DNA of 64,000 nt from a phage. Below the pieces are notes generated by a model that was given only the letters and a program-made list of their open reading frames with translations, did no database searches and was not told where the DNA came from. Every line of letters starts with the position of its first letter. Positions within the stretch are counted from its first letter, which is position 1. This document shows, piece by piece, positions 3,361 through 59,996 of this stretch. The stretch lies in assembly GCA_022897995.1 (NCBI GenBank), contig GCA_022897995.1_4763.1; one strand, written 5' to 3'. The position numbers and the translations under genes are program-made.

Positions 3361-5469
3361 ATGAAAATGCATATTGATAATGAAGAAGTATTTGGCAGTG
3401 ACTTGAGCGGTGCGGTTGATTTTTCACTGAAAGCAAGTAGCAAGGCTTTTATGGTGCTTTCTAAGAACACTTATCAATATTGTGAGCGTGCTTGCGTCCG
3501 TGAGTATTCGTGCAATGCTACCGACACTCACAAAGAAGCCGGAACCTTAGATCGTCCGTTTGATATTCATTTACCGACTGCAATCGAACCGTATTTTTCT
3601 GTGCGTGATTATGGTACTGGTATTCCGTCTAAGAAAGAATTAGAACAACTGTTTACGGTTTACTTTGAATCAACCAAAGACCAGACTAATGATTATATCG
3701 GATCTTTTGGTTTGGGTGCGAAGTCTGCTTATAGCTATACCGACACCTTTACAATCGTAAACTACTACAATGGTCGCGCTTATGGCTTTACTGCATTTGT
3801 GCAAAACTCTATGCCGAAAATGGTGCAGATTTTCGACGAACCGACCTATGAAGACAATGGTCTGAAAATCACTATTCCGGTGAAAGAAAAAGACATTCAG
3901 ACATGGCATCGAGAAGCACAATTTGTACTGCGTCATTTTGGGGAACACAAACCTAATATCAATGCCATCGAAATTAATTATTTCCCTAGCTTTGATAATT
4001 ATTATGTGTGTAATGGACGTGATAACGATTCCTATGTGGTATATGCAATCATGGGTAAGATCCAGTATCCGATCCCGTATGAATATGTTCGCGGAACATG
4101 GTTAGAAGCTGTAAACCACCAGCACCAGACCATTTACATTAATTTTGAGTTGGGTGATCTGGACCTTATGCCATCGCGTGAAGAAGTTCACTTGTCAATT
4201 GAGACTAAAGCGAACATCGAAAAACGCATTGCAGAAATCAATGAAATGATGTTGGAAAAGGTTAAAGAGAAGATCGCCAACATTAAAACAGAGCGTAAAC
4301 TTGCTCAATTTATGAGCGAGTATTCATCGACGCAACGCAATATTATTAGCAAGATGGGTAAGATCGGACAATGGGACGATCCGGTAGCAATCTATAATAA
4401 GTTTGTGAATGCGGGTAAATATTCGCCTAATGACGTAGAAGGTCAGGTGTATACTCTGTATCGTACTCGTCACACAATCAGTAAATTGCGACCTGCTTTC
4501 GTTAGCAGTCAATACAACATTACGCATTTTGTATGGATGCATAAAGAAGATATTACGTGTCTTATTGATGATACCGATAAACCGAAACTGCGTGCACTGA
4601 CTCTTAACGGCATGGTCCAGGAATATGGAATCAATAAAAAAGTACTGGTGTTCCGTCAGAACAACGAAAAACATATGGAGACTTTCGAGTACATCAAACA
4701 GTATTATGATGATTCTGAAATGACCGTGATTAAGGTATCAGAGGCCGATGATCTGCGTGCTAAAGCAGTTAAGCCGGAGAAGACCGAGCGTACACAACGT
4801 GAAGCTACTCCCAAGCTGCCTAACGTGTATATCATGGAAAAGATTGGTGACAGTTGGCATAAAACCAGCCATCACATGAAAGCGGCAGAGATTCGCGAGT
4901 TATCAGGCTTGCACATGTTCCGCGTAGGTGATGCATTCGAAAGCCGTAGCCGTCAATCGATCTATAATGAAAATACATTACATACGGCGCTTGACTACTT
5001 CGGGGTAACAAAGTATATTATTACTCGAAACGAGACACAAAAATATCTCGTTGACGAACAATTGGAATGTGCGCTAGAATTTGTTCGCGGTAAGCTGGCT
5101 GGTCTGGCTAAGAAGGTTAAGACCAATCATCTGGGGTATGGCGAATATCTGGGTGTGATCACTATGTTGTTTCATGACGATGAACTAGAACGCTGTGTTC
5201 CAGAATTTATTGACAGACTGTACGGTCGTCATTATAATAAAGAGGTTTCCAAGTTACTCCTTCATACTCGTTGGATTATGGACGAAGAAACTAAAAAGAT
5301 TTGTGATGAAAAATTCACGGCAGCAAACGAACGAATTAAAGCAGTTTGTGCGAAGTTTAAAGAGAATAGCCCGTTACTGTATGATATTGTAGATAACTGG
5401 TATCGTATTCTGCATAACGACAAACGCGCACAAGACTTTATGAAACTGGTTAAGAATGTTAAATTTTAA
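3361..5469 (+). CDS. rIIA: rIIA protein (membrane-associated, N-terminal GHKL ATPase-like domain)
   Basis: 702 aa (T4 rIIA about 725 aa); motifs DYGTGIP and GSFGLGAKSAY; sits between 39 and rIIB as in T-even phages. Confidence 0.8.
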   Translation: MKMHIDNEEVFGSDLSGAVDFSLKASSKAFMVLSKNTYQYCERACVREYSCNATDTHKEAGTLDRPFDIHLPTAIEPYFSVRDYGTGIPSKKELEQLFTVYFESTKDQTNDYIGSFGLGAKSAYSYTDTFTIVNYYNGRAYGFTAFVQNSMPKMVQIFDEPTYEDNGLKITIPVKEKDIQTWHREAQFVLRHFGEHKPNINAIEINYFPSFDNYYVCNGRDNDSYVVYAIMGKIQYPIPYEYVRGTWLEAVNHQHQTIYINFELGDLDLMPSREEVHLSIETKANIEKRIAEINEMMLEKVKEKIANIKTERKLAQFMSEYSSTQRNIISKMGKIGQWDDPVAIYNKFVNAGKYSPNDVEGQVYTLYRTRHTISKLRPAFVSSQYNITHFVWMHKEDITCLIDDTDKPKLRALTLNGMVQEYGINKKVLVFRQNNEKHMETFEYIKQYYDDSEMTVIKVSEADDLRAKAVKPEKTERTQREATPKLPNVYIMEKIGDSWHKTSHHMKAAEIRELSGLHMFRVGDAFESRSRQSIYNENTLHTALDYFGVTKYIITRNETQKYLVDEQLECALEFVRGKLAGLAKKVKTNHLGYGEYLGVITMLFHDDELERCVPEFIDRLYGRHYNKEVSKLLLHTRWIMDEETKKICDEKFTAANERIKAVCAKFKENSPLLYDIVDNWYRILHNDKRAQDFMKLVKNVKF

Positions 5470-5481
5470 GAGGTGATATTA

Positions 5482-5613
5482 TGACTAAACTGACCGCTAT
5501 CCAGAAAGAAACCATCCGTAAACAATACGCTCGCGGCTTGACTAAAGGCGAACTGGCACGAATCTATAATGTGTCAGACCGCACAATCCGCAAGGTTGTA
5601 GAAGCAAAATAAT
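5482..5613 (+). CDS. small helix-turn-helix protein
   Basis: 43 aa ORF with SD GAGGTGATATT; HTH-like segment LTKGELARIYNVSDRTIRK; too short for the ORF track. Confidence 0.35.
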
Positions 5614-5650
5614 TCTGGTATAATGATGTGAATCGGGCGGCGATAGTCGC
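5597..5650 (+). promoter_or_regulatory. candidate promoter plus hairpin upstream of rIIB
   Basis: TTGTAG 5597-5602, 17 nt spacer, TATAAT 5620-5625; GGGCGgcgatagtCGCCC hairpin 5635-5652. Confidence 0.35.
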
Positions 5651-5665
5651 CCAACTAATAGAGGA

Positions 5666-6667
5666 ATGAATACTATGACTAAAGCAAAAATCACCGTCTC
5701 TGACCGTAACGTTCAATGCCTGGATTCTGAAAAACAAATCAAACTGGCTAAACAGTGGGGCGAAGGTAAGTTTACTACCCGCGAAGCACTTGCGGCAGCA
5801 TTTGGGGTATCTCGTCGTACTGCCTCCCGTGTATTACTGATTCAGAAAGACGCAGTAGCGGAAGGTCGCAAGGCACTAGAAAAACGTAAAGCACGCCGTA
5901 AAACCAGTAAAGGAAAAGGCGGTGAACGCGCAAAAAAGCCCGTGACTACTTCCTCAAAAATCGTAGCAATAGCCTCAACTAAGTTTATTACTATTACATG
6001 TGGTGACATTGTTTATACTGCTGATCCGTCGCATGTTAACTTTAATGAAGCACTGGAAGCGATTAAACATAATGATTTCATCAAAGCTATTACGCTGATT
6101 GACATTAAGAAAGCGGTTGAAGTATATTATCACGGCGCTTTCCGTATCGAAAATGGTATTGTGTATTATCATAATATTGTTCTTGATAATAATCTGACTC
6201 GTCGAGTTGTGGAGTCGATTAAAGAGAATAAGCCATATACGCACTATCTGAACTTCTTTGAGAAGTGCAAGAAAAACCCTAGCCGTAAGGCCGTAGATCG
6301 TCTATTTGACTTCTTAGAGCACAACGACATTGAGATCGGGGAAGATGGTTGTTTCTATGCATGGAAACGTGTTGATGTTGATTATAAAGATTTCTTTACG
6401 CATACGTTTGATAATAGCCCAGGTCGCACGGTTAAAATGAAGCGTAAAGACGTGGACCCAGATGATGATCGCACTTGCTCTAATGGCCTCCACGTTGCAG
6501 CGAAACACTATATTCCGCACTATGGCGGTGGACGAGGCCGAATCATTAAATGTAAAGTTGATCCGCGTCACGTTGTAAGTATCCCGAAAGATTATGCGAA
6601 TGCCAAAATGCGCTGTCATCGTTACTATGTGGTTGAAGATGTAACCGAAGGTTTTAGCCATTACTAA
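5666..6667 (+). CDS. rIIB: rIIB protein
   Basis: 333 aa; C-terminal half closely resembles T4 rIIB as recalled (AVDRLFDFL, FYAWK, TFDNSPG); adjacent to rIIA. Confidence 0.8.
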   Translation: MNTMTKAKITVSDRNVQCLDSEKQIKLAKQWGEGKFTTREALAAAFGVSRRTASRVLLIQKDAVAEGRKALEKRKARRKTSKGKGGERAKKPVTTSSKIVAIASTKFITITCGDIVYTADPSHVNFNEALEAIKHNDFIKAITLIDIKKAVEVYYHGAFRIENGIVYYHNIVLDNNLTRRVVESIKENKPYTHYLNFFEKCKKNPSRKAVDRLFDFLEHNDIEIGEDGCFYAWKRVDVDYKDFFTHTFDNSPGRTVKMKRKDVDPDDDRTCSNGLHVAAKHYIPHYGGGRGRIIKCKVDPRHVVSIPKDYANAKMRCHRYYVVEDVTEGFSHY

Positions 6668-6681
6668 CAGAGGAATTAATT

Positions 6682-7008
6682 ATGGTTGATATGAAAGTTA
6701 CTTGCGAAAGTGCACATGTTGAAGTTGAAAGTAGCCAATATTCATTGCGTCCGTCCGGTCGCGTTACTGTGACTATGGATGATGTTGATTTGGTTAATAA
6801 TGTTAGTGTTGAAGATATCGTTAATGAGTATGATCATAGCGAACTGCTAGACGCAATTCCTGAACATGTTGTGATCCAGCACGTAGTAAGCAATAATGAT
6901 CCATCGACTTTCATTAAAGAATACGGCGCTGATGAAATGCTCGATGAAATTGGCGAAAAGATTGTTATTGCATGGCTTGAAAACAACGGTTATACTGTAG
7001 AACAATAA
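6682..7008 (+). CDS. hypothetical acidic protein
   Basis: 108 aa ORF following rIIB. Confidence 0.45.
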   Translation: MVDMKVTCESAHVEVESSQYSLRPSGRVTVTMDDVDLVNNVSVEDIVNEYDHSELLDAIPEHVVIQHVVSNNDPSTFIKEYGADEMLDEIGEKIVIAWLENNGYTVEQ

Positions 7009-7016
7009 TCAACATA

Positions 7017-7042
7017 GGCCGCTTTGCGCGGCCTTTCTTAGA
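7017..7042 (+). terminator. rho-independent terminator
   Basis: GGCCGC-tttgc-GCGGCC hairpin followed by TTTCTT. Confidence 0.5.
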
Positions 7043-7053
7043 GGGAATACATT

Positions 7054-7347
7054 ATGACGGTCACGGTTATTACCAAATACGACGACGAAAATGTGATTTA
7101 CGGTGACGTGGTTGTTGTTCACGGTCGTAGCATGAAAGTTACTGGTAATTGTAAAGATGGTGCTATTATTTGTGGTGAATTTGTGAGAACAGTCAATCCT
7201 ATCACCGACGAACAAAAGCGAGTCATTATCAGAAAACTTAAAGACAGTGGATATTGTAACGTCGTGGTGATTCAAGAAAAAATTGAAGTAGGCCACTTAT
7301 ACACAAATCAGAAAACAATTCCGGTATCAATGGTTAAAGGCGGTTAA
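7054..7347 (+). CDS. hypothetical protein
   Basis: 97 aa ORF with SD GAGGGAATACATT. Confidence 0.45.
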   Translation: MTVTVITKYDDENVIYGDVVVVHGRSMKVTGNCKDGAIICGEFVRTVNPITDEQKRVIIRKLKDSGYCNVVVIQEKIEVGHLYTNQKTIPVSMVKGG

Positions 7348-7349
7348 TA

Positions 7350-7712
7350 ATGCTAGGTCATTCTAAAATAGAAGATTGCTCATTCAGAGCAATGAAAGAT
7401 GATTTTTCGGTCCTGTACGCGTCTATCCGAGAGTTGTTTGTAGATTTTAAGCAATTCAGAGAATACAAAGGCGTTAAGATGCGGGAGTGGGTATTCTGGC
7501 CTTTCTATATCATTACTCTGTTTTCTATGGTATTTTGTTTTGTCGGGATCTCTATCGCTAGTTTTGTCACTTGCGTTTTCCTGATTATCAGGTGTATCAT
7601 GTTTGCTTTGATTGCTGCCCCGTTTATTGTGTCAATCCTTCCGTTAAAATGGCTATTGGATTGGGCTGATAAATCTGATAAAGTAAAGAATGTGATTTGT
7701 AAGCGTGTATGA
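7350..7712 (+). CDS. small integral membrane protein
   Basis: 120 aa with long hydrophobic stretches (WVFWPFYIITLFSMVFCFVGISIASFV, FALIAAPFIVSIL). Confidence 0.45.
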   Translation: MLGHSKIEDCSFRAMKDDFSVLYASIRELFVDFKQFREYKGVKMREWVFWPFYIITLFSMVFCFVGISIASFVTCVFLIIRCIMFALIAAPFIVSILPLKWLLDWADKSDKVKNVICKRV

Positions 7713-9084
7713 GGTGAAGATGGATAAAATTAGTCAAATTGTAAACACATTTACTTACCGCAGCCTTGAAAGCATTGTACATAATGAAGCTAAGGAATAT
7801 GCGATCTATTCTGCCGAGGAACGCGGGATTCCTCAATTAGTGGATGGGCTTAAACCAGTTCAACGCTTTGTTATGGAGTGCGCACTTCAAAAGAGTAAAG
7901 GCGACCGTAAGAAATTCCGTAAGATGGCAGATATTGGATCTGGTGTTGCTGAGTTGGGTTATCACCACGGGGAAACTAATGCCGTAGAAGCCGGATCACT
8001 CATGGCGAATACATGGAGCAATAATACTCCACTGCTTGACGGTCAAGGTAACTTCGGATCGCGTTTAGTCCAGAAAGCAGGTGCGGCACGTTATATCTTT
8101 GCTCGTGTTCATGAAAACTTCTTTAAAATCTATAAAGATATGAATTGCGCACCTAAACACGAAGATCTGGAACACATCCCGCCAGTGTTCTACTTGCCAG
8201 TTGTGCCAATGGTATTGGCTAATGGTATTAGTGGTATTGCTACAGGGTATAAAACTGACATTTTACCGCATTCACTGGAAAGCCTTATTGAATGCACAGA
8301 GCTAGCACTTGCCGGAAAACTGGATAAAGAACCTAGTGTTCAATTCCCGAAATTCACGGGTAAAGTTATCCCTCGTGATGACCGAGATGGTGTCATTCTT
8401 GAGGGTACATATGAACTAAACGGCAAGACTAAGCTGACAATATCAGAAGTTCCTTATAAGTTCGACCGTGAAGAATATGTAGCGGTACTGGATGCACTGG
8501 AAGAAAAAGATCTGATTGTCTCATATAATGACCGTTGCTCTAAGGATGGATTCAGATTTGAAGTAACACTGAAACGCGATTATTTCAAAAGCGAAGATGA
8601 ATCCGCTCGACATGAGCAAATCATGAAGGATTTTAAACTAACGCAGTTAGTAGCCCAGAATATCGTAGTAGTTAACGAACGTGGTTTAGTTGAAGTATTC
8701 GAGAAAGCTAGCGACCTGATCCGTCGATTCGTCGAAATCCGATTAGGGTATGTCGATAAACGCATTGAATTGATGCAAGCGGAAACGCTGGAAGCATACA
8801 ATTATGCAATGGCTAAAGCCGAATTTATCGATCGCGTAATTAAGGGCGAAATCGAGCTACAGGGCAAGAAAAAGGCCGAGGTAATGCAATCCATCAATGG
8901 ACATGAAAAACTGCGTCCATACGCCGATAAGCTAGTTTCTATGCCATTGTATAGCGTTACTCAAGAAGAGTATGATCGACTGGTCAAAGATGCCGATAAA
9001 CATCATAGTGAATATGAGTATTGGACAAAGACGACCGCAATGAAGGAATATAAGAAAGATCTTAAAGAACTTAAGAAGGGTTGA
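7705..9084 (+). CDS. 52: DNA topoisomerase II medium subunit (GyrA-like cleavage/religation)
   Basis: 459 aa (T4 gp52 about 442 aa); GyrA-like N-terminus; same operon direction as 39. Confidence 0.85.
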   Translation: MYEVKMDKISQIVNTFTYRSLESIVHNEAKEYAIYSAEERGIPQLVDGLKPVQRFVMECALQKSKGDRKKFRKMADIGSGVAELGYHHGETNAVEAGSLMANTWSNNTPLLDGQGNFGSRLVQKAGAARYIFARVHENFFKIYKDMNCAPKHEDLEHIPPVFYLPVVPMVLANGISGIATGYKTDILPHSLESLIECTELALAGKLDKEPSVQFPKFTGKVIPRDDRDGVILEGTYELNGKTKLTISEVPYKFDREEYVAVLDALEEKDLIVSYNDRCSKDGFRFEVTLKRDYFKSEDESARHEQIMKDFKLTQLVAQNIVVVNERGLVEVFEKASDLIRRFVEIRLGYVDKRIELMQAETLEAYNYAMAKAEFIDRVIKGEIELQGKKKAEVMQSINGHEKLRPYADKLVSMPLYSVTQEEYDRLVKDADKHHSEYEYWTKTTAMKEYKKDLKELKKG

Positions 9085-9284
9085 TTATGAAAGAATATCC
9101 AGAAGGCGGTTATATTGCATTTCTGTACAACAATAAAAAGATTGTGCCAATTGTCGTTGAAACACTGGAAGAATCCAACCGGATCACCAGTGAATCTCTG
9201 AGCAAATTAGCAGAGATGACAAACACGCCAGAACACAGAGCAAAGATCGACAACTTGATGAAAGAATTATCAGAGAGGAAATAA
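9081..9284 (+). CDS. hypothetical protein
   Basis: 67 aa ORF translationally coupled to 52. Confidence 0.4.
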   Translation: MIMKEYPEGGYIAFLYNNKKIVPIVVETLEESNRITSESLSKLAEMTNTPEHRAKIDNLMKELSERK

Positions 9285-9287
9285 ATT

Positions 9288-9683
9288 ATGACTGAACGAC
9301 GCATCACTTCAAATGGTTTGGGTACTCATCATGCATGGATGGTTGACCCAGACAAAAATCCTTATAAACTTTACGACACAACGATTAAACCGTGGAATAA
9401 TGGCGTATGGAAAACACCGCCCACAACAGCACCTATTATGACAGACCCGAAACCGTTTAGCCCGATGGCGGAACCAGTACAGATTAAGCCGTTACCTTAC
9501 CAGATAACGACGAATAGCATCGCCAACAAACAAGAAAATGATATTGATATGATCTACGAGATGATTAAACTTTGGCGTGATGTTTATCTGGGTGTTCTAT
9601 GCAACACAGATAAAAGTGCACATGCGGCAGCGGTACTTGCATCTCATGCGGTAGACGAAGCCAAAAAGAAATTTAGTAAGTAA
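9288..9683 (+). CDS. hypothetical protein
   Basis: 131 aa ORF. Confidence 0.45.
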   Translation: MTERRITSNGLGTHHAWMVDPDKNPYKLYDTTIKPWNNGVWKTPPTTAPIMTDPKPFSPMAEPVQIKPLPYQITTNSIANKQENDIDMIYEMIKLWRDVYLGVLCNTDKSAHAAAVLASHAVDEAKKKFSK

Positions 9684-46217: not shown

Positions 46218-46469
46218 ATGGCTAACATCGAAACCGCAAAGAAAATCGCTAAAGACCTGAACGTTAAAGGCTTCCGTAAACTGAAATTACAGCGTGTACG
46301 CTACACCATCGGCAAACAGTGCTCTTTCATGAGCGAAGAAGTTGCTAACAGCCTCATCGATAACCTGATCGCGGCTGGCTGGGAAGTTACGGATCTGAAA
46401 ACTTGCAGCGAACTGGCTAACAAAGGTCTTTTAGATTCTGTTACTATCAAACCAATGGGGGCAGCGTGA
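46218..46469 (+). CDS. hypothetical protein
   Basis: 83 aa starting MANIET, the same first five codons as the ORF at 48105; first gene after the promoter. Confidence 0.45.
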   Translation: MANIETAKKIAKDLNVKGFRKLKLQRVRYTIGKQCSFMSEEVANSLIDNLIAAGWEVTDLKTCSELANKGLLDSVTIKPMGAA

Positions 46470-47182
46470 AACAAAAATTAATATTCTGCAACTTTGACGG
46501 ATCGGGGATAATGGGGCTAGAATGGGCTAAAGCAGGTCATAAGGTGATCTGCTTTAATGCTGACGATGGCGACCACGGTACATACAAAAAGTATAATACC
46601 AGATTTGAACATCCAAACATTACCTATGTAAACACATGGATTGATTTGAACTGGCTGGAAAGAGCAATGGACCTTGAATGGGGGAAACCGGATATTATCT
46701 TTGCATTCCCACCGTGCACAAATTTAGCTGTTAGTGGCGCTGCACACTTTGAACGAAAGAAACGAGAGCAAGGACCATTGATTCAAGTTCATGATGTGAG
46801 GGCAGCTAAAATAACCGCTTATTTGGGTGAATGGCTAGGAGTTCCCTACATGATAGAGAATCCTGTAAGCGTTATCTCTAGCATGTGGCGTAAGCCTGAT
46901 TACATGTTCCATCCGTGGGAATATGGTGGTTATTTGCCGGAAGATGATAAACATCCTACGTTTCCTGAGTATATCGCCGCCCGTGATATGTACCCGAAAA
47001 AGACTTGCTTATGGACCGGACAAGGCTTTATAATGCCAGAAAAGAAACCGTTGCCGATTAATAAAGGGTACAGTAAACAGCATTCTAAGCTAGGCGGGAA
47101 AGGAACCAGAACAAAGACTATCAGGTCACTTACCCCGCGAGGATTTGCAAAGGCAGTATTTGAAGCCAATAAGGATCTATAA
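46466..47182 (+). CDS. C5-cytosine methyltransferase-like protein (SAM-dependent, compact)
   Basis: Motif I-like FCNFDGSGIMG, motif IV-like FAFPPCTNLAVSG (PC catalytic Cys), motif VI-like MIENPVS, C-terminal RSLTPRGFAKAV; 238 aa with only a short candidate target-recognition region. Confidence 0.45.
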   Translation: MKQKLIFCNFDGSGIMGLEWAKAGHKVICFNADDGDHGTYKKYNTRFEHPNITYVNTWIDLNWLERAMDLEWGKPDIIFAFPPCTNLAVSGAAHFERKKREQGPLIQVHDVRAAKITAYLGEWLGVPYMIENPVSVISSMWRKPDYMFHPWEYGGYLPEDDKHPTFPEYIAARDMYPKKTCLWTGQGFIMPEKKPLPINKGYSKQHSKLGGKGTRTKTIRSLTPRGFAKAVFEANKDL

Positions 47183-47511
47183 TGAGATTGTTTAAGTATT
47201 CTCTAACGTCAAATTACGATAAACAAGGTCATTGCATCCGTTGCCCTAATTGCCATAGCCATAACATTGAAAGCAAGATCACCGATCATATTGATGGACT
47301 TTGGTCGCCAGCAAGCGAGATAGAATACTATTGCGCTGATTGTGGAATTGTAGTAGCATATTGGGCATACGGATCATATGATCCTTACTTCCAGATGGGA
47401 GAGCGTTCAATCCCTGCTCTTATCTGGAGAATTAAGAACAATATCCGGCATTCATGGGATGAGTTCTTAAAAGATATTGATTTACGTGATGATCCATTCA
47501 GGAGACTATAA
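47182..47511 (+). CDS. zinc-ribbon protein
   Basis: CIRCPNCHSH ... YYCADCG; TAATG overlap with the upstream methyltransferase-like gene. Confidence 0.4.
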   Translation: MRLFKYSLTSNYDKQGHCIRCPNCHSHNIESKITDHIDGLWSPASEIEYYCADCGIVVAYWAYGSYDPYFQMGERSIPALIWRIKNNIRHSWDEFLKDIDLRDDPFRRL

Positions 47512-48028
47512 CATGAACAGATTAACGCCTAAACGCCGTTACTATACCAATACTAAAAACTTTGTCATCTCTGTTTATGAGGCGTGGTTAGAAGATGGAT
47601 ATATCAACATGAACCCAGATTATCAGCGTCCTTTAGTATGGGACACCGAAAACAAACGTATGTTTATCGAAAACCTGATTAATGATTTTCCGGTTGGTGC
47701 TATCGCAATGGCTAAGATTGATGATGGCTCTCGCTATGAGATCGAAATCGTGGACGGTAAACAGCGTTTAAACGCAATATTCTCTTTCATGAAGGATGAG
47801 TTTAGCATTGCTGGTAATGATGATTCTATGCTGTATTACAGCGATTTTACGCCAGCAGAAAAGCGACGTTTCCGAAATCTCGGACTACCAGCGATCATGA
47901 TGGAAGAGAGCACACGAGAAGACCGATTAGAGTATTTCTACAAAACAAACTTTTTCGGTGTGCCTCAATCGGAAGAACATCGCCAGCACGTAATTGCCCT
48001 ATTGCAAGATGAGCAATTAAAAAAATAA
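47477..48028 (+). CDS. DUF262 (ParB/GmrS-N-like) domain protein
   Basis: DYQRPLVW and IVDGKQRLNAI motifs as in DUF262 (DYQR...W, DGQQR); 183 aa stand-alone; overlaps the upstream ORF. Confidence 0.45.
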   Translation: MIYVMIHSGDYNMNRLTPKRRYYTNTKNFVISVYEAWLEDGYINMNPDYQRPLVWDTENKRMFIENLINDFPVGAIAMAKIDDGSRYEIEIVDGKQRLNAIFSFMKDEFSIAGNDDSMLYYSDFTPAEKRRFRNLGLPAIMMEESTREDRLEYFYKTNFFGVPQSEEHRQHVIALLQDEQLKK

Positions 48029-48317: not shown

Positions 48318-48324
48318 TAAAAAG

Positions 48325-48352
48325 GGGGCGTTAAGCCCCTTTTTCATAAATA
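48325..48352 (+). terminator. rho-independent terminator
   Basis: AAAGGGGGCgttaaGCCCCTTTTTC hairpin with T-run. Confidence 0.6.
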
Positions 48353-48385
48353 TAGGTTTATAGGTTATCAACTAGAGGATATAAA

Positions 48386-50437
48386 ATGTTTAACTTAGAA
48401 ATCGACGATCTAATGATTGAATCTTTCGAGAAATGGCTGTTGACGGAAGAGGAAGAAAACTTTGGCAGTATTGCTCCGGTACAGTGCTTAAAGCCTAAGC
48501 AGAATCCTAAACAGCTTTTTGCAGTACAGACACGCGATAAAGATGTGATTGTCCGTCTTTGCAACTTCACCAACAAAACACCTAAAATTGTTCGTATGGG
48601 TGACAAGACCGCACATGTTGTACTGTGCGAAATGAACAAAAGCGGTCGTATTGTACAGCTTAAAAATGGTCTAGGCGATAACCCGATTGCAGTTATGGCA
48701 AGTGCTTTTGATGTGGTTATGGAAACAGCCCGTAAAGCGCAATTAGACGCTGTTATGTTCCGTTTTAACGTATCCCGCATGAAAGGTAAGACCGAACTGG
48801 TTAAGCGCGTTATAGAGCGTTTGGTGCGTCGTACACCGAAGTTCGAAGTATTCCAGCAGGAAGTAATGACCAGCAAAAAGATCGCTTTGGTTGTTGTCAA
48901 GCGTCGCGGGATGGCGATTGATAAGATTAAAGGGATTAAACTTGATGATTCCCTGTTCACTAAAGTAGAAAGTGATTTAGGTGATCGCTGGGTATCTAAG
49001 GCTACTGGCGAATCTCTGACTAAAGATGAAGCGTATGCGGCTAGCCTTGCATCAGAAGAAGAACGAAACGCGGAAGCGGAACAACGTGTAGCGGCTAAAT
49101 CTCGTTTGACTAAAGAAGAAATGCTGAAAACTCAAGCGACCTATAACAGCGACTATGTGAATCATCCAGAAAAAATTAATCTTAAACCGGAAGAAGATAT
49201 CACCGAAGCCGAACCTAAGAAACAGTTTAATACTCTGATTGATCGTCAAGCCTTAGAACGTTCAACCGCTCGTTCTCTGAATGACTGGACAAGTGATATT
49301 ATCACTCGCTATGGTTTCATGCGTACTATTTTTGAAAGCGAAGCCGATGCAAAATACGCAGTAAGCGAACTGGTAAAAGTTCAGGACCAATATGATCCGT
49401 TGTCTGCGGAAGTTATCGCAGCATCAATCAAACGCTTAAAAGAAATCATGAATGAAGAAGTGTTTGAAAACAAGATCACCGCCCTAGCAATGGATCGAGT
49501 AGACCAGTCTATGCCAGCAGATGTAAAGGCTGAAATGTTGCGTAGTCACATCACGCAGATTAAAACCGATGCCCTACGTAATGTTGCTTCCGGTATGTTT
49601 GAAGCAATTGCTAGCAACATGGGTGAAATGATGGCAGATATTGATCTTGATCTGCCGGGCGCGGAAGGTTTTGTGTTGAGCGAGTATGCCGATGCAGCAT
49701 ACATCAATATGAACAACTTCCTAACCGACCGTAAGCTGGAAGAGTTTGACGGCATCGCAGATCCAGAAGAATTGGTCAAGATGTGCGATGCACTGGATAA
49801 TGCCTTCTCTAACTATGGCGTTAAACTTGATCCGGGTACTATTCTGTATCGTGGTATGGACTTCCGGTCTCAAATGTGGGAAACTGCACGTAAGCAAAAA
49901 GCGTTTTACTTTAAAAACTATGTGAGCACTTCCCTTGCACCTAACATTTTTGGCGGCTGGAATGCAAACGTGGCTAGTGCCGTTGCTGGTGTTGATTCTA
50001 TGGCTGGATCTCGCGGTGAAGGTGGCGCTAATGTTGCTTTCTCCATTGCTGGCGCGGAAAACATCCCTGTATTGCCAGTAGGTAACAAGGCATTTGCTTA
50101 CAAAGAATGCGAGATTTTACTTCCTCGCGGCGTTGTGTTATCCTTTGATACGGTAACTCGTGCCACGGCATCGACGGATTCACAAGAAACTTATTACATT
50201 GAGGCACATATTATGAACAAAAATGAACTGGCAGCATTACAAGAATCTGGCGAGATGATCGCGGACGGTGATGCATTCATCCGTGAAGGTGTTGTTAAAC
50301 CTGCTTCTGACCTGTCTTTCTCCAGCTTTATTACCGAAGCTAAAACCGAACGTAAGAAAGCAGATAAGGCAACTCTACGTCAGCTTATCGCTGATCTGGT
50401 ATCTGTAGACGCAATGCCAGATAAATTTAAAATGTAA
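48386..50437 (+). CDS. alt: ADP-ribosyltransferase Alt
   Basis: 683 aa (T4 Alt about 682 aa); C-terminal R-S-E motifs: LYRGM, FKNYVSTSLAP, ECEILLPRG; position between 30 and 54. Confidence 0.75.
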   Translation: MFNLEIDDLMIESFEKWLLTEEEENFGSIAPVQCLKPKQNPKQLFAVQTRDKDVIVRLCNFTNKTPKIVRMGDKTAHVVLCEMNKSGRIVQLKNGLGDNPIAVMASAFDVVMETARKAQLDAVMFRFNVSRMKGKTELVKRVIERLVRRTPKFEVFQQEVMTSKKIALVVVKRRGMAIDKIKGIKLDDSLFTKVESDLGDRWVSKATGESLTKDEAYAASLASEEERNAEAEQRVAAKSRLTKEEMLKTQATYNSDYVNHPEKINLKPEEDITEAEPKKQFNTLIDRQALERSTARSLNDWTSDIITRYGFMRTIFESEADAKYAVSELVKVQDQYDPLSAEVIAASIKRLKEIMNEEVFENKITALAMDRVDQSMPADVKAEMLRSHITQIKTDALRNVASGMFEAIASNMGEMMADIDLDLPGAEGFVLSEYADAAYINMNNFLTDRKLEEFDGIADPEELVKMCDALDNAFSNYGVKLDPGTILYRGMDFRSQMWETARKQKAFYFKNYVSTSLAPNIFGGWNANVASAVAGVDSMAGSRGEGGANVAFSIAGAENIPVLPVGNKAFAYKECEILLPRGVVLSFDTVTRATASTDSQETYYIEAHIMNKNELAALQESGEMIADGDAFIREGVVKPASDLSFSSFITEAKTERKKADKATLRQLIADLVSVDAMPDKFKM

Positions 50438-50454
50438 TTTTTAAGAAATAATGG

Positions 50455-50500
50455 TTGACTCAAACGGGGACTAGTTTTATACTAGCCCCGTTTTCTGTTA
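50455..50500 (+). promoter_or_regulatory. sigma70-like promoter overlapping a hairpin with T-run
   Basis: TTGACT 50455-50460, 18 nt spacer, TATACT 50479-50484; ACGGGGACTAGT...ACTAGCCCCGT stem followed by TTTTCTGTT. Confidence 0.5.
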
Positions 50501-50515
50501 TATGGGAGGTTTAAA

Positions 50516-51340
50516 ATGTTCAAACAATTACAGGATTTTCGTCTTTCAGAAGAATCACGCGAATCAATGATGGAACGTATGGATAATTACATAGAAACAT
50601 ATGGCATTGAGGGGATTAATGGTTACATGATCACTGAGATGATCAGCGATCAGATTAATTTTGATGATTATGTGAAGATTATCCGCTTCCTTGAGCGTGA
50701 GACACAAGATTATGGATTTGTCAAGAAAATCATTAATGTGATGTATGAAGTACACTCCGAAGATTTTGGAGATAATGTATTCAAACATTACAAACATAAC
50801 AACATAACCCCAGCAGAATATAATGCAATCTGTGATTATGTGTCTGAACAATACGAATGGGTAAATGGTGCTCTCTTAGGGGAAGAAGACATGACCGACG
50901 AGATATCAGAAATTGTTGATTTGATGGATTGTGTCATGGATAAAACCGAAAAGTTAAACGGTACTCTTTATCGCGGTCAACATCTTGACATTCAGACAAT
51001 AGAGCGTATTATTGAAGATAAGGAATTTACCTTTAAAAACTTTGTGTCAACCAGCATGACACCAATCATCTTTGGAGGCTGGCTTTCAAATAGCACTAGC
51101 CTTTATTGTGAGAATCGATATGAATCCATGACCGGAAAGATGCAACATTCTTGTAATGTATCATGGGTAATTGACGTAAAAGATCATAAAGGTTTTGTTG
51201 TTGGATCAATTGCATGGAATCCTTGCGAATGTGAAGTAATTTTACCGCGCGGGACTTGCATAAAGGTAAACGACGTAGTAGAATCCTTCGGCGATGAGAA
51301 TCGTAGACAATTTACAATTTTCGGTGAGGTGACTAAATGA
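50516..51340 (+). CDS. second ADP-ribosyltransferase, Alt-domain paralog
   Basis: LYRGQ, FKNFVSTSMTPIIFGGW and ECEVILPRG closely mirror the Alt catalytic motifs; 274 aa. Confidence 0.6.
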   Translation: MFKQLQDFRLSEESRESMMERMDNYIETYGIEGINGYMITEMISDQINFDDYVKIIRFLERETQDYGFVKKIINVMYEVHSEDFGDNVFKHYKHNNITPAEYNAICDYVSEQYEWVNGALLGEEDMTDEISEIVDLMDCVMDKTEKLNGTLYRGQHLDIQTIERIIEDKEFTFKNFVSTSMTPIIFGGWLSNSTSLYCENRYESMTGKMQHSCNVSWVIDVKDHKGFVVGSIAWNPCECEVILPRGTCIKVNDVVESFGDENRRQFTIFGEVTK

Positions 51341-51822
51341 AAATGATTAAACTGATTGGTCTTGCGGCTGCATTCATGCTTACTGGTTGTGCTAACATGG
51401 AAGCTATGATGAATGCTAAATCAGATCCGGTTTTCTTGCTTCGTGAATGTAAAGCAGCATATGCAAGCGATGACCAGATCGAATCGTGCTTTATTTCTAA
51501 AATGGAACGTCGAGACGTGGATCGCGTTAAAGTTGGTTTAGCACCACAAACGCAGATGTTCAAAGATGCGATCAAAGAAGCGCGGGAAGAGAAAGCACGA
51601 GAAGAAAAGAAGCGTCAAGAAGAATTGCGCAAACAGAAAGAAGAGTCTATACAACTTGAGAAGATGAAAGCAAGGGATCGTTGTATTATCATGTCTGACA
51701 TGCAGATAGAGCAAGAAGCAAGAAAAGCAGCATTAAACGGTGATTATGACCGTTATGAAGAACTTAACAGCGCAGAATTTCAAGCTAAGGCACTAAAATA
51801 TTGCAATGATTTAGCAAAATAA
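51337..51822 (+). CDS. lipoprotein with charged coiled-coil C-terminus
   Basis: Signal peptide MKMIKLIGLAAAFMLTGC with lipobox LTGC; C-terminal KEAREEKAREEKKRQEELRKQKEE. Confidence 0.5.
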   Translation: MKMIKLIGLAAAFMLTGCANMEAMMNAKSDPVFLLRECKAAYASDDQIESCFISKMERRDVDRVKVGLAPQTQMFKDAIKEAREEKAREEKKRQEELRKQKEESIQLEKMKARDRCIIMSDMQIEQEARKAALNGDYDRYEELNSAEFQAKALKYCNDLAK

Positions 51823-51825
51823 AAA

Positions 51826-51850
51826 GGCGGGGATAATCCCCGCCTTTCGC
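51826..51850. terminator. bidirectional terminator between convergent genes
   Basis: GGCGGGGAtaaTCCCCGCC hairpin flanked by A-run and TTTCGC, between the lipoprotein gene and gene 54. Confidence 0.55.
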
Positions 51851-59759: not shown

Positions 59760-59996
59760 TTAAAAATCCTCTTCCGGCTCCTCTTCTGGCTCGTTGTCCG
59801 CTTCCAGTTGCTTACGGCGTCCAGCGATGGCATCACGGATCGAAATGTCATCAGCAGGTTTCAATTCTGTTTCTTTCTTGCGCTTCTCATAATATGCCTC
59901 AAGTTCATTTAATCCCTCGATAGTATTACAAGAATAAATCTTACTCATAAAACCGTCAATAGCGGCCTCAACCAAAAAACGTTTAAAGCTAATCAT
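59760..59996 (-). CDS. uvsW.1: UvsW.1-like small acidic protein
   Basis: 78 aa (T4 UvsW.1 about 76 aa); immediately downstream of uvsW on the minus strand. Confidence 0.6.
   Translation of the reverse strand: MISFKRFLVEAAIDGFMSKIYSCNTIEGLNELEAYYEKRKKETELKPADDISIRDAIAGRRKQLEADNEPEEEPEEDF

Follow-up and report, generated by a model that had tools for sequence, protein, structure and literature searches.

Two genes for ADP-ribosyltransferases (ARTs) stand side by side in the phage DNA analysed here, which raises the question of why a second enzyme of this kind is kept and whether it is a fresh copy of the first. The DNA is a stretch of 64,000 nucleotides (hereafter the 64 kb window; assembly GCA_022897995.1) and belongs to a Krischvirus, a coliphage of the RB49/Phi1/GEC-3S type, with 97–98% nucleotide identity. 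The 4 kb region of the locus finds 59 phage records at 97–98% identity, every one of them Krischvirus (RB49, Phi1, GEC-3S, ECD7 and others). The initial annotation had described a 683 amino acid (aa) Alt protein and, directly after it, a 274 aa protein with the same R-S-E catalytic motifs and an unrelated N-terminus, and had proposed a domain duplication with a new targeting region. The coordinates, the strand and the quoted motifs of this pair are all confirmed (Table 1). The label "ART2" is used here for the 274 aa gene, RB49p183. We suggest, with moderate confidence, that ART2 is an early-made, probably unpackaged, arginine-specific ART of the Alt/VIP2 branch, which complements the injected Alt.

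The 683 aa protein matches T4 Alt over its whole length (27% identity, E = 4e-61) and phrog_802 (E = 7e-181), and the 99%-identical cluster of the window Alt carries both PF26846 and PF03496; these matches identify it as the Alt orthologue. Its catalytic residues R489, S514-T-S516 and E574-x-E576 are invariant in the Alt seed alignment. ART2 and its paralogy to alt are already on record, annotated and published since 2003–2006 (GenBank/RefSeq, PHROGs and a 2006 comparative paper). The gene product carries the name "ADP-ribosyltransferase" with the note "similar to C-terminal part of T4 Alt protein", RefSeq applies the ADP-ribosyltransferase name throughout the genus, and Nolan et al. 2006 (PMC1524935) named RB49p183 an alt paralog. 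ART2 matches phrog_15144 over its full length (1–274 of 274, E = 1.5e-196) and also the Alt-family profiles phrog_802, phrog_26651 and phrog_9935. Against PF03496 (ADPrib_exo_Tox; gathering score 23.4) ART2 scores 58.6 bits over residues 82–266 and Alt scores 37.3 bits, and both pass; the NCBIfam search returned no match. BLASTP relates ART2 to the neighbouring Alt (37% identity over 109 aa, E = 1e-16), and its residues 98–257 to T4 Alt 413–593 (31% identity, E = 2e-23).

The catalytic motifs are indeed shared. LYRGQ, FKNFVSTSMTPIIFGGW and ECEVILPRG of ART2 correspond to LYRGM, FKNYVSTSLAPNIFGGW and ECEILLPRG of Alt, and the residues R153, S178-T179-S180 and E238-C-E240 stand in register with Alt R489, STS514–516 and E574xE576. 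ART2 keeps these residues without exception in a six-member family alignment (homologs at 83, 62, 47, 45 and 41% identity), and its motifs also align with the YRG, STS and ExE motifs of Tre1 and with the ExE of SpvB. In the R-S-E clade the ExE ARTT motif goes with arginine specificity (SpvB, iota, Vis, Tre1, T4 Alt), and we infer that ART2 is an active, arginine-specific enzyme.

The homology extends well beyond these motifs. Comparison of family profiles with hhalign (7 sequences of the ART2 family against 16 full-length Alt sequences) aligns ART2 67–273 with Alt 395–610 at E = 6e-43 and 100% probability, so that the homology to Alt takes in about 76% of ART2, as the ART fold alone needs about 200 residues. 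The AlphaFold2 model of ART2 (pLDDT 76.6, pTM 0.73) is helical up to residue 143 and continues as a beta-sandwich, and Foldseek superposes it on Vis, C3bot, Certhrax, Plx2a, CDTa/iota and Tre1 (probability 1.0, E from 1e-10 to 1e-8, about 207–220 columns). From the Alt 395–610 match and this superposition it follows that about three quarters of ART2 are catalytic fold, which in the model is C3-like, with N-terminal helices and a split beta-sandwich. A sequence search of the PDB found distant toxins only and no structure of an Alt or a Mod. The ART domain reaches almost to the end of the protein, with one residue beyond it.

The claim of an unrelated N-terminus thus stands for residues 1–66, which are without a counterpart in Alt, but not for the rest of the protein outside the C-terminal motifs, as the similarity spans residues 67–273. 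Residues 1–80 gave no hhalign match to the Alt profile. A hidden Markov model (HMM) of residues 1–66 recovered ART2-family proteins only among 169 Alt-like and ART sequences, and against 38,880 PHROGs the segment matched only its own family. Homology of this segment to the central region of Alt was considered and rejected: PHROG and HMMER alignments reached residues 8–60, the segment alone matched nothing, and we treat them as alignment overreach. Within the family the segment is conserved, with D45, Y52, I56, E60 and Y66 invariant, and is therefore a genuine, private N-terminal extension; the boundary of ART2–Alt homology is placed by these alignments at about residue 67. With only Alt 395–610 matched, ART2 is without the Alt N-terminal domain PF26846, the linker and the C-terminal tail, and in relatives PF26846 is recorded solely on long proteins of 660–697 aa. 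A T4 head holds about 40 copies of Alt, and gp21 trims the protein at both termini (PMC9026906). The parts missing from ART2 include these trimmed termini, and ART2 is taken, therefore, to be without the packaging parts of Alt.

The alt/ART2 arrangement is old. The order of alt, a short ART gene (264–275 aa), a 159–174 aa gene and convergent gp54 is found in the window and in the divergent lineages L006, L014/L015 and L016, with alt encoding 660–683 aa (truncated by the contig end in L016). Both members have diverged in step between the window and L006 (ART2 51.5%, Alt 47.2% identity). The pair is present in lineages with Alt proteins only 43–47% identical and therefore predates them. A tree built by neighbour joining from 82 sequences and 198 columns, with 200 bootstraps, recovers the ART2 family as monophyletic (92.5% bootstrap) and outside the Krischvirus Alt clade; the 264 aa protein P0018 is the sister of the ART2 clade with 71% support. 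A profile search of 1.84 billion representatives gave 469 matches at E ≤ 1e-3. Three clusters only are at the ART2-family level (271–282 aa, E ≤ 6e-75); past a gap follow one 3254 aa polyvalent protein and then Alt proteins of 600–700 aa at about 1e-28. Of cultured phages, only the 59 Krischvirus records contain the family, with the open reading frame (ORF) intact, and its divergent members are metagenomic. A related-locus search in viral contigs returned 2 near-identical loci only, and a word-indexed search with Alt returned 2 proteins. Ratios of nonsynonymous to synonymous substitution (dN/dS) among three Krischvirus genomes are 0–0.07 for ART2, a range like that of alt (0.04–0.06), which identifies ART2 as a gene maintained under strong purifying selection and not as a relic.

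These data bear on two readings in which ART2 is either young or decaying. The initial annotation implied that the Alt catalytic domain had been duplicated recently within this genome and joined to an unrelated N-terminal targeting region, and it is true that ART2 lies directly beside alt on the same strand, that the motif blocks are near-identical and that residues 1–66 have no detectable homolog in Alt. We nevertheless regard a recent origin as improbable. Over 193–196 columns of the ART domain the identity of ART2 to its own Alt (26.9%) is no higher than to T4 Alt (28.7%), with Krischvirus Alt and T4 Alt themselves at 27.6%; the tree does not join ART2 and its own Alt as sisters; and the pair was already in place in lineages as divergent as those above. 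The motifs are conserved across the whole Alt family, and their near-identity therefore reflects constraint and is no sign of a recent duplication. Hence the paralogy survives and the recency does not: tree, identities and deep synteny make ART2 an old paralog, predicted to be separately regulated. The opposite reading, a functionless remnant in decay, has precedents in T4, where the record describes alt.-1/alt.-2, at the same position, as a relic of duplication of the first part of alt (see also PMC1524935), and in other phages with split second copies (L009; PMC4177764). It is strongly disfavoured, and we give it next to no weight, as the ORF is intact in 59 genomes with the low dN/dS given above, the catalytic triad is invariant over deep divergence, and the promoter and Shine-Dalgarno (SD) sequence are conserved.

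Second alt-derived genes in the gap between alt and gp54 are known from T4 (alt.-1/alt.-2), 44RR (ORF187c/188c), ZZ1 (CDS210/211), JS98, Bp7 and Ac42, and the L009 pair belongs here too; tandem paralogs in T4-like phages were reported in PMC1524935, and duplications or splits of alt in the Acinetobacter phages ZZ1 and Ac42 and in JS98 and Bp7 in PMC4177764. Those paralogs are either full-length or split copies, or else N-terminal remnants, whereas ART2 consists of the catalytic domain only with its private extension, has its own promoter and forms a separate clade. In L009, a T-even-like metagenomic contig, the second alt copy (5086–9248) occupies the same site as ART2 and is broken into two ORFs, one of 273 aa with the Alt N-domain only and one of 415 aa with the ART domain and C-tail; alt.-3 follows. 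The ART of this second copy shares only 34% identity with the adjacent Alt but 55% with that of another Alt lineage (P0010), a pattern suggestive of exchange between phages rather than duplication on the spot. Different second copies at one site, in L009 and others, thus mark the alt/gp54 junction as a place of recurrent gain and decay of alt paralogs.

The two genes differ in their predicted control. Just upstream of alt, a hairpin with a T-run (fold −15.5 kcal/mol, z = −3.6) is annotated as a terminator in GEC-3S and predicted in RB49 as 'alt<--RB49ORF185c' (PMC1524935 supplement); the terminator-before-alt arrangement recurs in L006, L009 and T4. It is followed directly by CATAAATA, which resembles the T4 late-promoter consensus TATAAATA. 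A late core stands at the equivalent place before alt in T4 (TATAAATA), L009 (TATAAATA), L006 (AATAAATA) and L014 (CTAAATA), and in RB49 late promoters the first T of the core is poorly conserved (PMC1524935). The whole window holds 8 copies of ATAAATA against 23.5 ± 4.8 expected from shuffles, a depletion that suggests selection against spurious late promoters, and one of these eight is the core just 5' of alt. Position and motif depletion point to CATAAATA as the putative late promoter of alt. Behind a terminator and a late-promoter core, alt is probably, therefore, made late, packaged and injected, like T4 Alt. No ATAAATA core occurs within 48353–51340, so none is predicted 5' of ART2.

The 78 bp spacer between alt and ART2 is instead built as a promoter–stem-loop cassette of the PeSL type. 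PeSL elements of RB49 and Phi1 combine a near-perfect sigma-70 promoter with a stem-loop of a G-run and a C-run (Arbiol et al. 2010, PMC2839356; PMC4122927), and promoter and terminator activity were shown for the PeSLs 193/192, 206/205 and 211/210 (PMC2839356). The alt/ART2 spacer has every sequence feature of a PeSL, its promoter and terminator roles being predicted: AT-rich TTTTTAAGAAATAATGG lies 5' of the promoter, the stem-loop arms CGGGGACTAG and CTAGCCCCG are followed by TTTTCTGTT (fold −20 kcal/mol, z = −3.5), and GGGAGG-N6-ATG stands at the 3' end. The −10 box is inside the hairpin; a transcript begun there is therefore without the 5' arm, and a transcript reading in from alt can fold the hairpin and stop. 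Two independent groups recognised the promoter, as it is annotated here in GEC-3S and was predicted in RB49 as early promoter Pe:112388 (Nolan et al., PMC1524935). Its counterparts in L006 (TTGACA-N17-TATACT), L014 (TTGACA-N17-TAGAAT) and L016 (TTGACA-N17-TATGAT) score 11/12 each. The stem is kept in the same three lineages, where the stem sequences differ and yet still pair, and the SD is conserved too. The module of putatively late alt, terminator–promoter cassette, putatively early short ART and lipoprotein gene, described below, is older than the genus.

About ten PeSL elements are found in the window, all on the + strand (10238, 10520, 34248, 36791, 37072, 44938, 45904, 46149, 48040 and 50455). 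They precede small ORFs and show an AT-rich stretch, a TTGACA-N17-TATAAT-like promoter, a G-run/C-run stem-loop over the −10, an SD and an ATG, in agreement with the description by Arbiol et al. 2010 for RB49/Phi1. Compared with the others, the alt/ART2 stem is longer (−18.9 versus about −12 to −15 kcal/mol), with a T-run after it. In L016 (1530–2345) the called start of the 271 aa ART2 homolog P0011 falls inside the promoter −10; translation almost certainly begins at Met13 (MFSVDW...), and with this start promoter, hairpin and SD are spaced as in the other lineages.

Could ART2 be simply the Krischvirus counterpart of T4 ModA or ModB, moved beside alt? Its small size and its predicted early promoter do recall the T4 mod genes. 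As orthology this reading is refuted, and we retain only the faintest probability for it. ART2 shows no significant BLASTP similarity to T4 ModA (E = 0.43) or ModB (E = 1.1) and no phrog_832 match at E ≤ 0.01, the family that holds T4 ModA, T4 ModB and a 167 aa Krischvirus protein. The latter is the true Mod homolog, with a better match to ModB (E = 8e-11) than to ModA (E = 2e-6); in GEC-3S it is annotated as modB and adjoins srd and dda, as in T4. ART2 is located between alt and gp54, whereas in GEC-3S and RB49 the slot beside srd/dda holds this separate gene. The complete RB49 genome has exactly three ART loci by tblastn, Alt, ART2 and Mod, of which the 64 kb window contains Alt and ART2 only, with the Mod gene outside. 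Since ART2 and Mod are different families, ART2 is at most a functional analogue of ModA/ModB. The chief rival of our reading is that ART2 is a second injected effector, packaged through its own N-terminal propeptide, similar to a capsid targeting sequence (CTS) and ending in a gp21 (L/I)xE site (LSE12). The N-terminus MFKQLQDFRLSE followed by ES fits such a site, the tripeptide occurs at the aligned position in five of the six family members, and the gene adjoins alt. T4 internal proteins carry N-terminal CTS propeptides of 10–19 residues cut by gp21, and it has been proposed that such signals enable T4-like phages to package diverse cargo (PMC9026906); packaging in the head is frequent among the ARTs of myoviruses (PMC9503650). 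We judge packaging of ART2 unlikely, for (L/I)xE within residues 5–20 occurs in 15% of all RB49 ORFs, the first 12 residues of ART2 are poorly conserved, and the family does not preserve the aromatics of CTS positions 4 and 7. ART2 also has its own sigma-70 promoter, a terminator-like hairpin that isolates it from alt and no late-promoter core, and it is predicted to be co-transcribed, and is translationally coupled, with an exported lipoprotein and not with a head component. For comparison, RB49 offers no identifiable set of internal proteins with a CTS. A single N-terminus in RB49 is T4-CTS-like: MISFKRFLVE, followed by A, in a 78 aa acidic ORF (59760–59996, − strand), which resembles the T4 CTS MKTYQEFIAE, also followed by A, at the critical positions 4, 7, 8 and 10. 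As this ORF stands immediately 3' of a gene for a uvsW-like helicase, it probably encodes a UvsW.1-type protein rather than an internal protein, and therefore gives no usable CTS reference.

We return to the early-made, probably unpackaged ART as the preferred reading, and suggest the following sequence of events. ART2 would go back to an old event at the alt/gp54 junction, in which alt was either duplicated in tandem or acquired. It would have kept only the catalytic fold corresponding to Alt 395–610, lost the Alt N-terminal domain and C-terminal tail, and gained the 66-residue helical N-terminus. The two paralogs would then have been separated in time. In the late phase alt would be transcribed and Alt built into the prohead core and injected, like T4 Alt, with the stem-loop over the ART2 promoter probably terminating the late alt transcript. 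In the first minutes of infection host RNA polymerase would make the mRNA of ART2 and the lipoprotein from the PeSL promoter. ART2 may then ADP-ribosylate host proteins on arginine from inside the cell, as the early ModA and ModB of T4 do.

Several points weigh against this proposal. The literature search found no published enzymatic assay of RB49p183, and neither a transcriptome nor a virion proteome of a Krischvirus. The genes of T4 internal proteins are also transcribed early, and an early promoter does not exclude packaging. The (L/I)xE tripeptide near residue 10 in five of six family members is a possible prohead-protease site. The deep nodes of the neighbour-joining tree are unresolved (support 11.5% and below), and a single ancient duplication is therefore indistinguishable from lateral acquisition. 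The published early-promoter HMM scored Pe:112388 only 9.3, against 19–39 at neighbouring sites. The supplementary tables of PMC1524935 examined show no late promoter at RB49 alt, although the late-promoter list is perhaps not among them.

The gene downstream of ART2 is the third conserved member of the module. It is translationally coupled to ART2 through overlapping stop and start codons, and its 161 aa product is a predicted lipoprotein. Four divergent lineages keep the lipobox (L/M)-T-G-C-A and three more cysteines without change, and in every case the gene is found between the short ART gene and gp54. The protein belongs to phrog_16112 (function unknown) and has a weak match to Cor-like superinfection exclusion (E = 0.0077). 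A toxin–immunity pair of ART2 and this gene was also considered; this reading is unlikely, since the lipoprotein signal peptide of the downstream product would lead to its export. The unit of alt, ART2 and the lipoprotein gene ends at a bidirectional terminator (fold −19.6 kcal/mol, z = −5.8), also recovered by a terminator scan, annotated in GEC-3S and listed for RB49 as '54-><-RB49ORF182c' in the supplement of PMC1524935; beyond it gp54, gp48 and gp29 are convergent on the opposite strand.

Table 1. Features of the alt/ART2 locus, in positions of the 64 kb window unless another genome is named
Feature	Position	Strand	Details
Intrinsic terminator hairpin AAAAAGGGGGCGTTAAGCCCCTTTTT	48320-48344	+	closes the upstream early transcription unit, just 5' of alt
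Late-promoter-like core CATAAATA	48345-48352	+	directly 3' of the terminator hairpin; 34-41 nt before the alt start codon
alt	48386-50437	+	683 aa, ATG start
Alt layout	48386-50437	+	Alt N-terminal domain, linker, ART domain, C-terminal tail
ART catalytic domain of Alt	49568-50215	+	aa 395-610; R489, S514-T-S516, E574-x-E576
PeSL-type cassette	50438-50515	+	AT-rich stretch, promoter, stem-loop, T-run, SD
Promoter (predicted)	-35 TTGACT 50455-50460; N17; -10 TATACT 50478-50483	+	promoter scan 10/12
Stem-loop	50462-50493	+	overlaps promoter
T-run	50491-50499	+	
SD GGGAGG	50504-50509	+	
ART2 (RB49p183)	50516-51340	+	274 aa; phrog_15144, PF03496, RB49p183 identity, dN/dS
ART2 N-terminal extension	50516-50713	+	residues 1-66; helical, family-specific
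ART2 C3-like R-S-E ART domain	50714-51334	+	residues 67-273; hhalign, Foldseek, motifs
ART2 catalytic residues	R153 50972-50974; S178-T-S180 51047-51055; E238-x-E240 51227-51235	+	
Lipoprotein gene (predicted)	51337-51822	+	161 aa; start overlaps ART2 stop (ATGA)
Bidirectional terminator	51822-51848		separates the alt/ART2/lipoprotein unit from convergent gp54
Krischvirus Mod homolog	GEC-3S (L012) 9096-9599; RB49 (OZ035808) 86701-87201	-	167 aa, beside srd

Upstream of the locus, on the + strand, the window carries a 238 aa DNA methyltransferase-like ORF (46466–47182; annotated 'DNA methyltransferase' in GEC-3S and RB49). Two genes further on stands a 183 aa ORF (47477–48028) with a GmrSD_N/DUF262 domain only (Pfam E = 5e-20); in a type IV restriction enzyme this domain makes up the N-terminal half. 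The GEC-3S annotation gives the 183 aa ORF a shorter ATG start. The arrangement may be related to anti-restriction.

Set against known systems, ART2 shares with T4 Alt the family, the catalytic domain, the R, STS and ExE motifs and the neighbourhood between ligase-side early genes and gp54. It differs in length (274 against 682 aa), in its unique 66 aa N-terminus and in having a predicted sigma-70 early promoter instead of a late one. In its predicted use it is similar to ModA and ModB, as a small, early, intracellular R-S-E ART under a host-type promoter. Both T4 and Krischvirus have three ARTs, Alt, ModA and ModB in the former and Alt, ART2 and one ModB-like Mod in the latter; the difference is that the T4 Mod pair is matched by a single Krischvirus Mod beside srd. 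To the toxins C3, Vis, Certhrax, iota/CDTa and Tre1 it is linked by its predicted fold and, among the arginine-specific ones, by the ExE ARTT motif. From these bacterial toxins it is set apart by low identity (13–21%), by being phage-encoded and by having neither a secretion or translocation partner nor an adjacent cytoplasmic immunity gene.

As a discovery the locus has small weight, since the paralogy is already published and annotated and tandem alt paralogs are known in several T4-like phages; ART2 is one more data point and no new principle. What is added here is the predicted regulatory split between the paralogs, conserved across deeply diverged relatives, and the concrete hypothesis of an early, unpackaged ART. 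Krischvirus thus lends itself as a natural system in which to study how targets and timing are shared out among phage ARTs, a division of current interest after ModB RNAylation and the host defences against ARTs. That ART2 is a non-orthologous stand-in for ModA, in phages with one ModB-like Mod, is conceivable, though we hold it rather doubtful. If the proposal is true, an Alt-derived domain would be expressed early from a PeSL and would complete the modification of the alpha subunit of RNA polymerase, the target of T4 Alt; alternatively, the private 66-residue N-terminus would choose a new set of targets. In either case one ART fold would have been subfunctionalised, in timing and in targets, inside the same phage.

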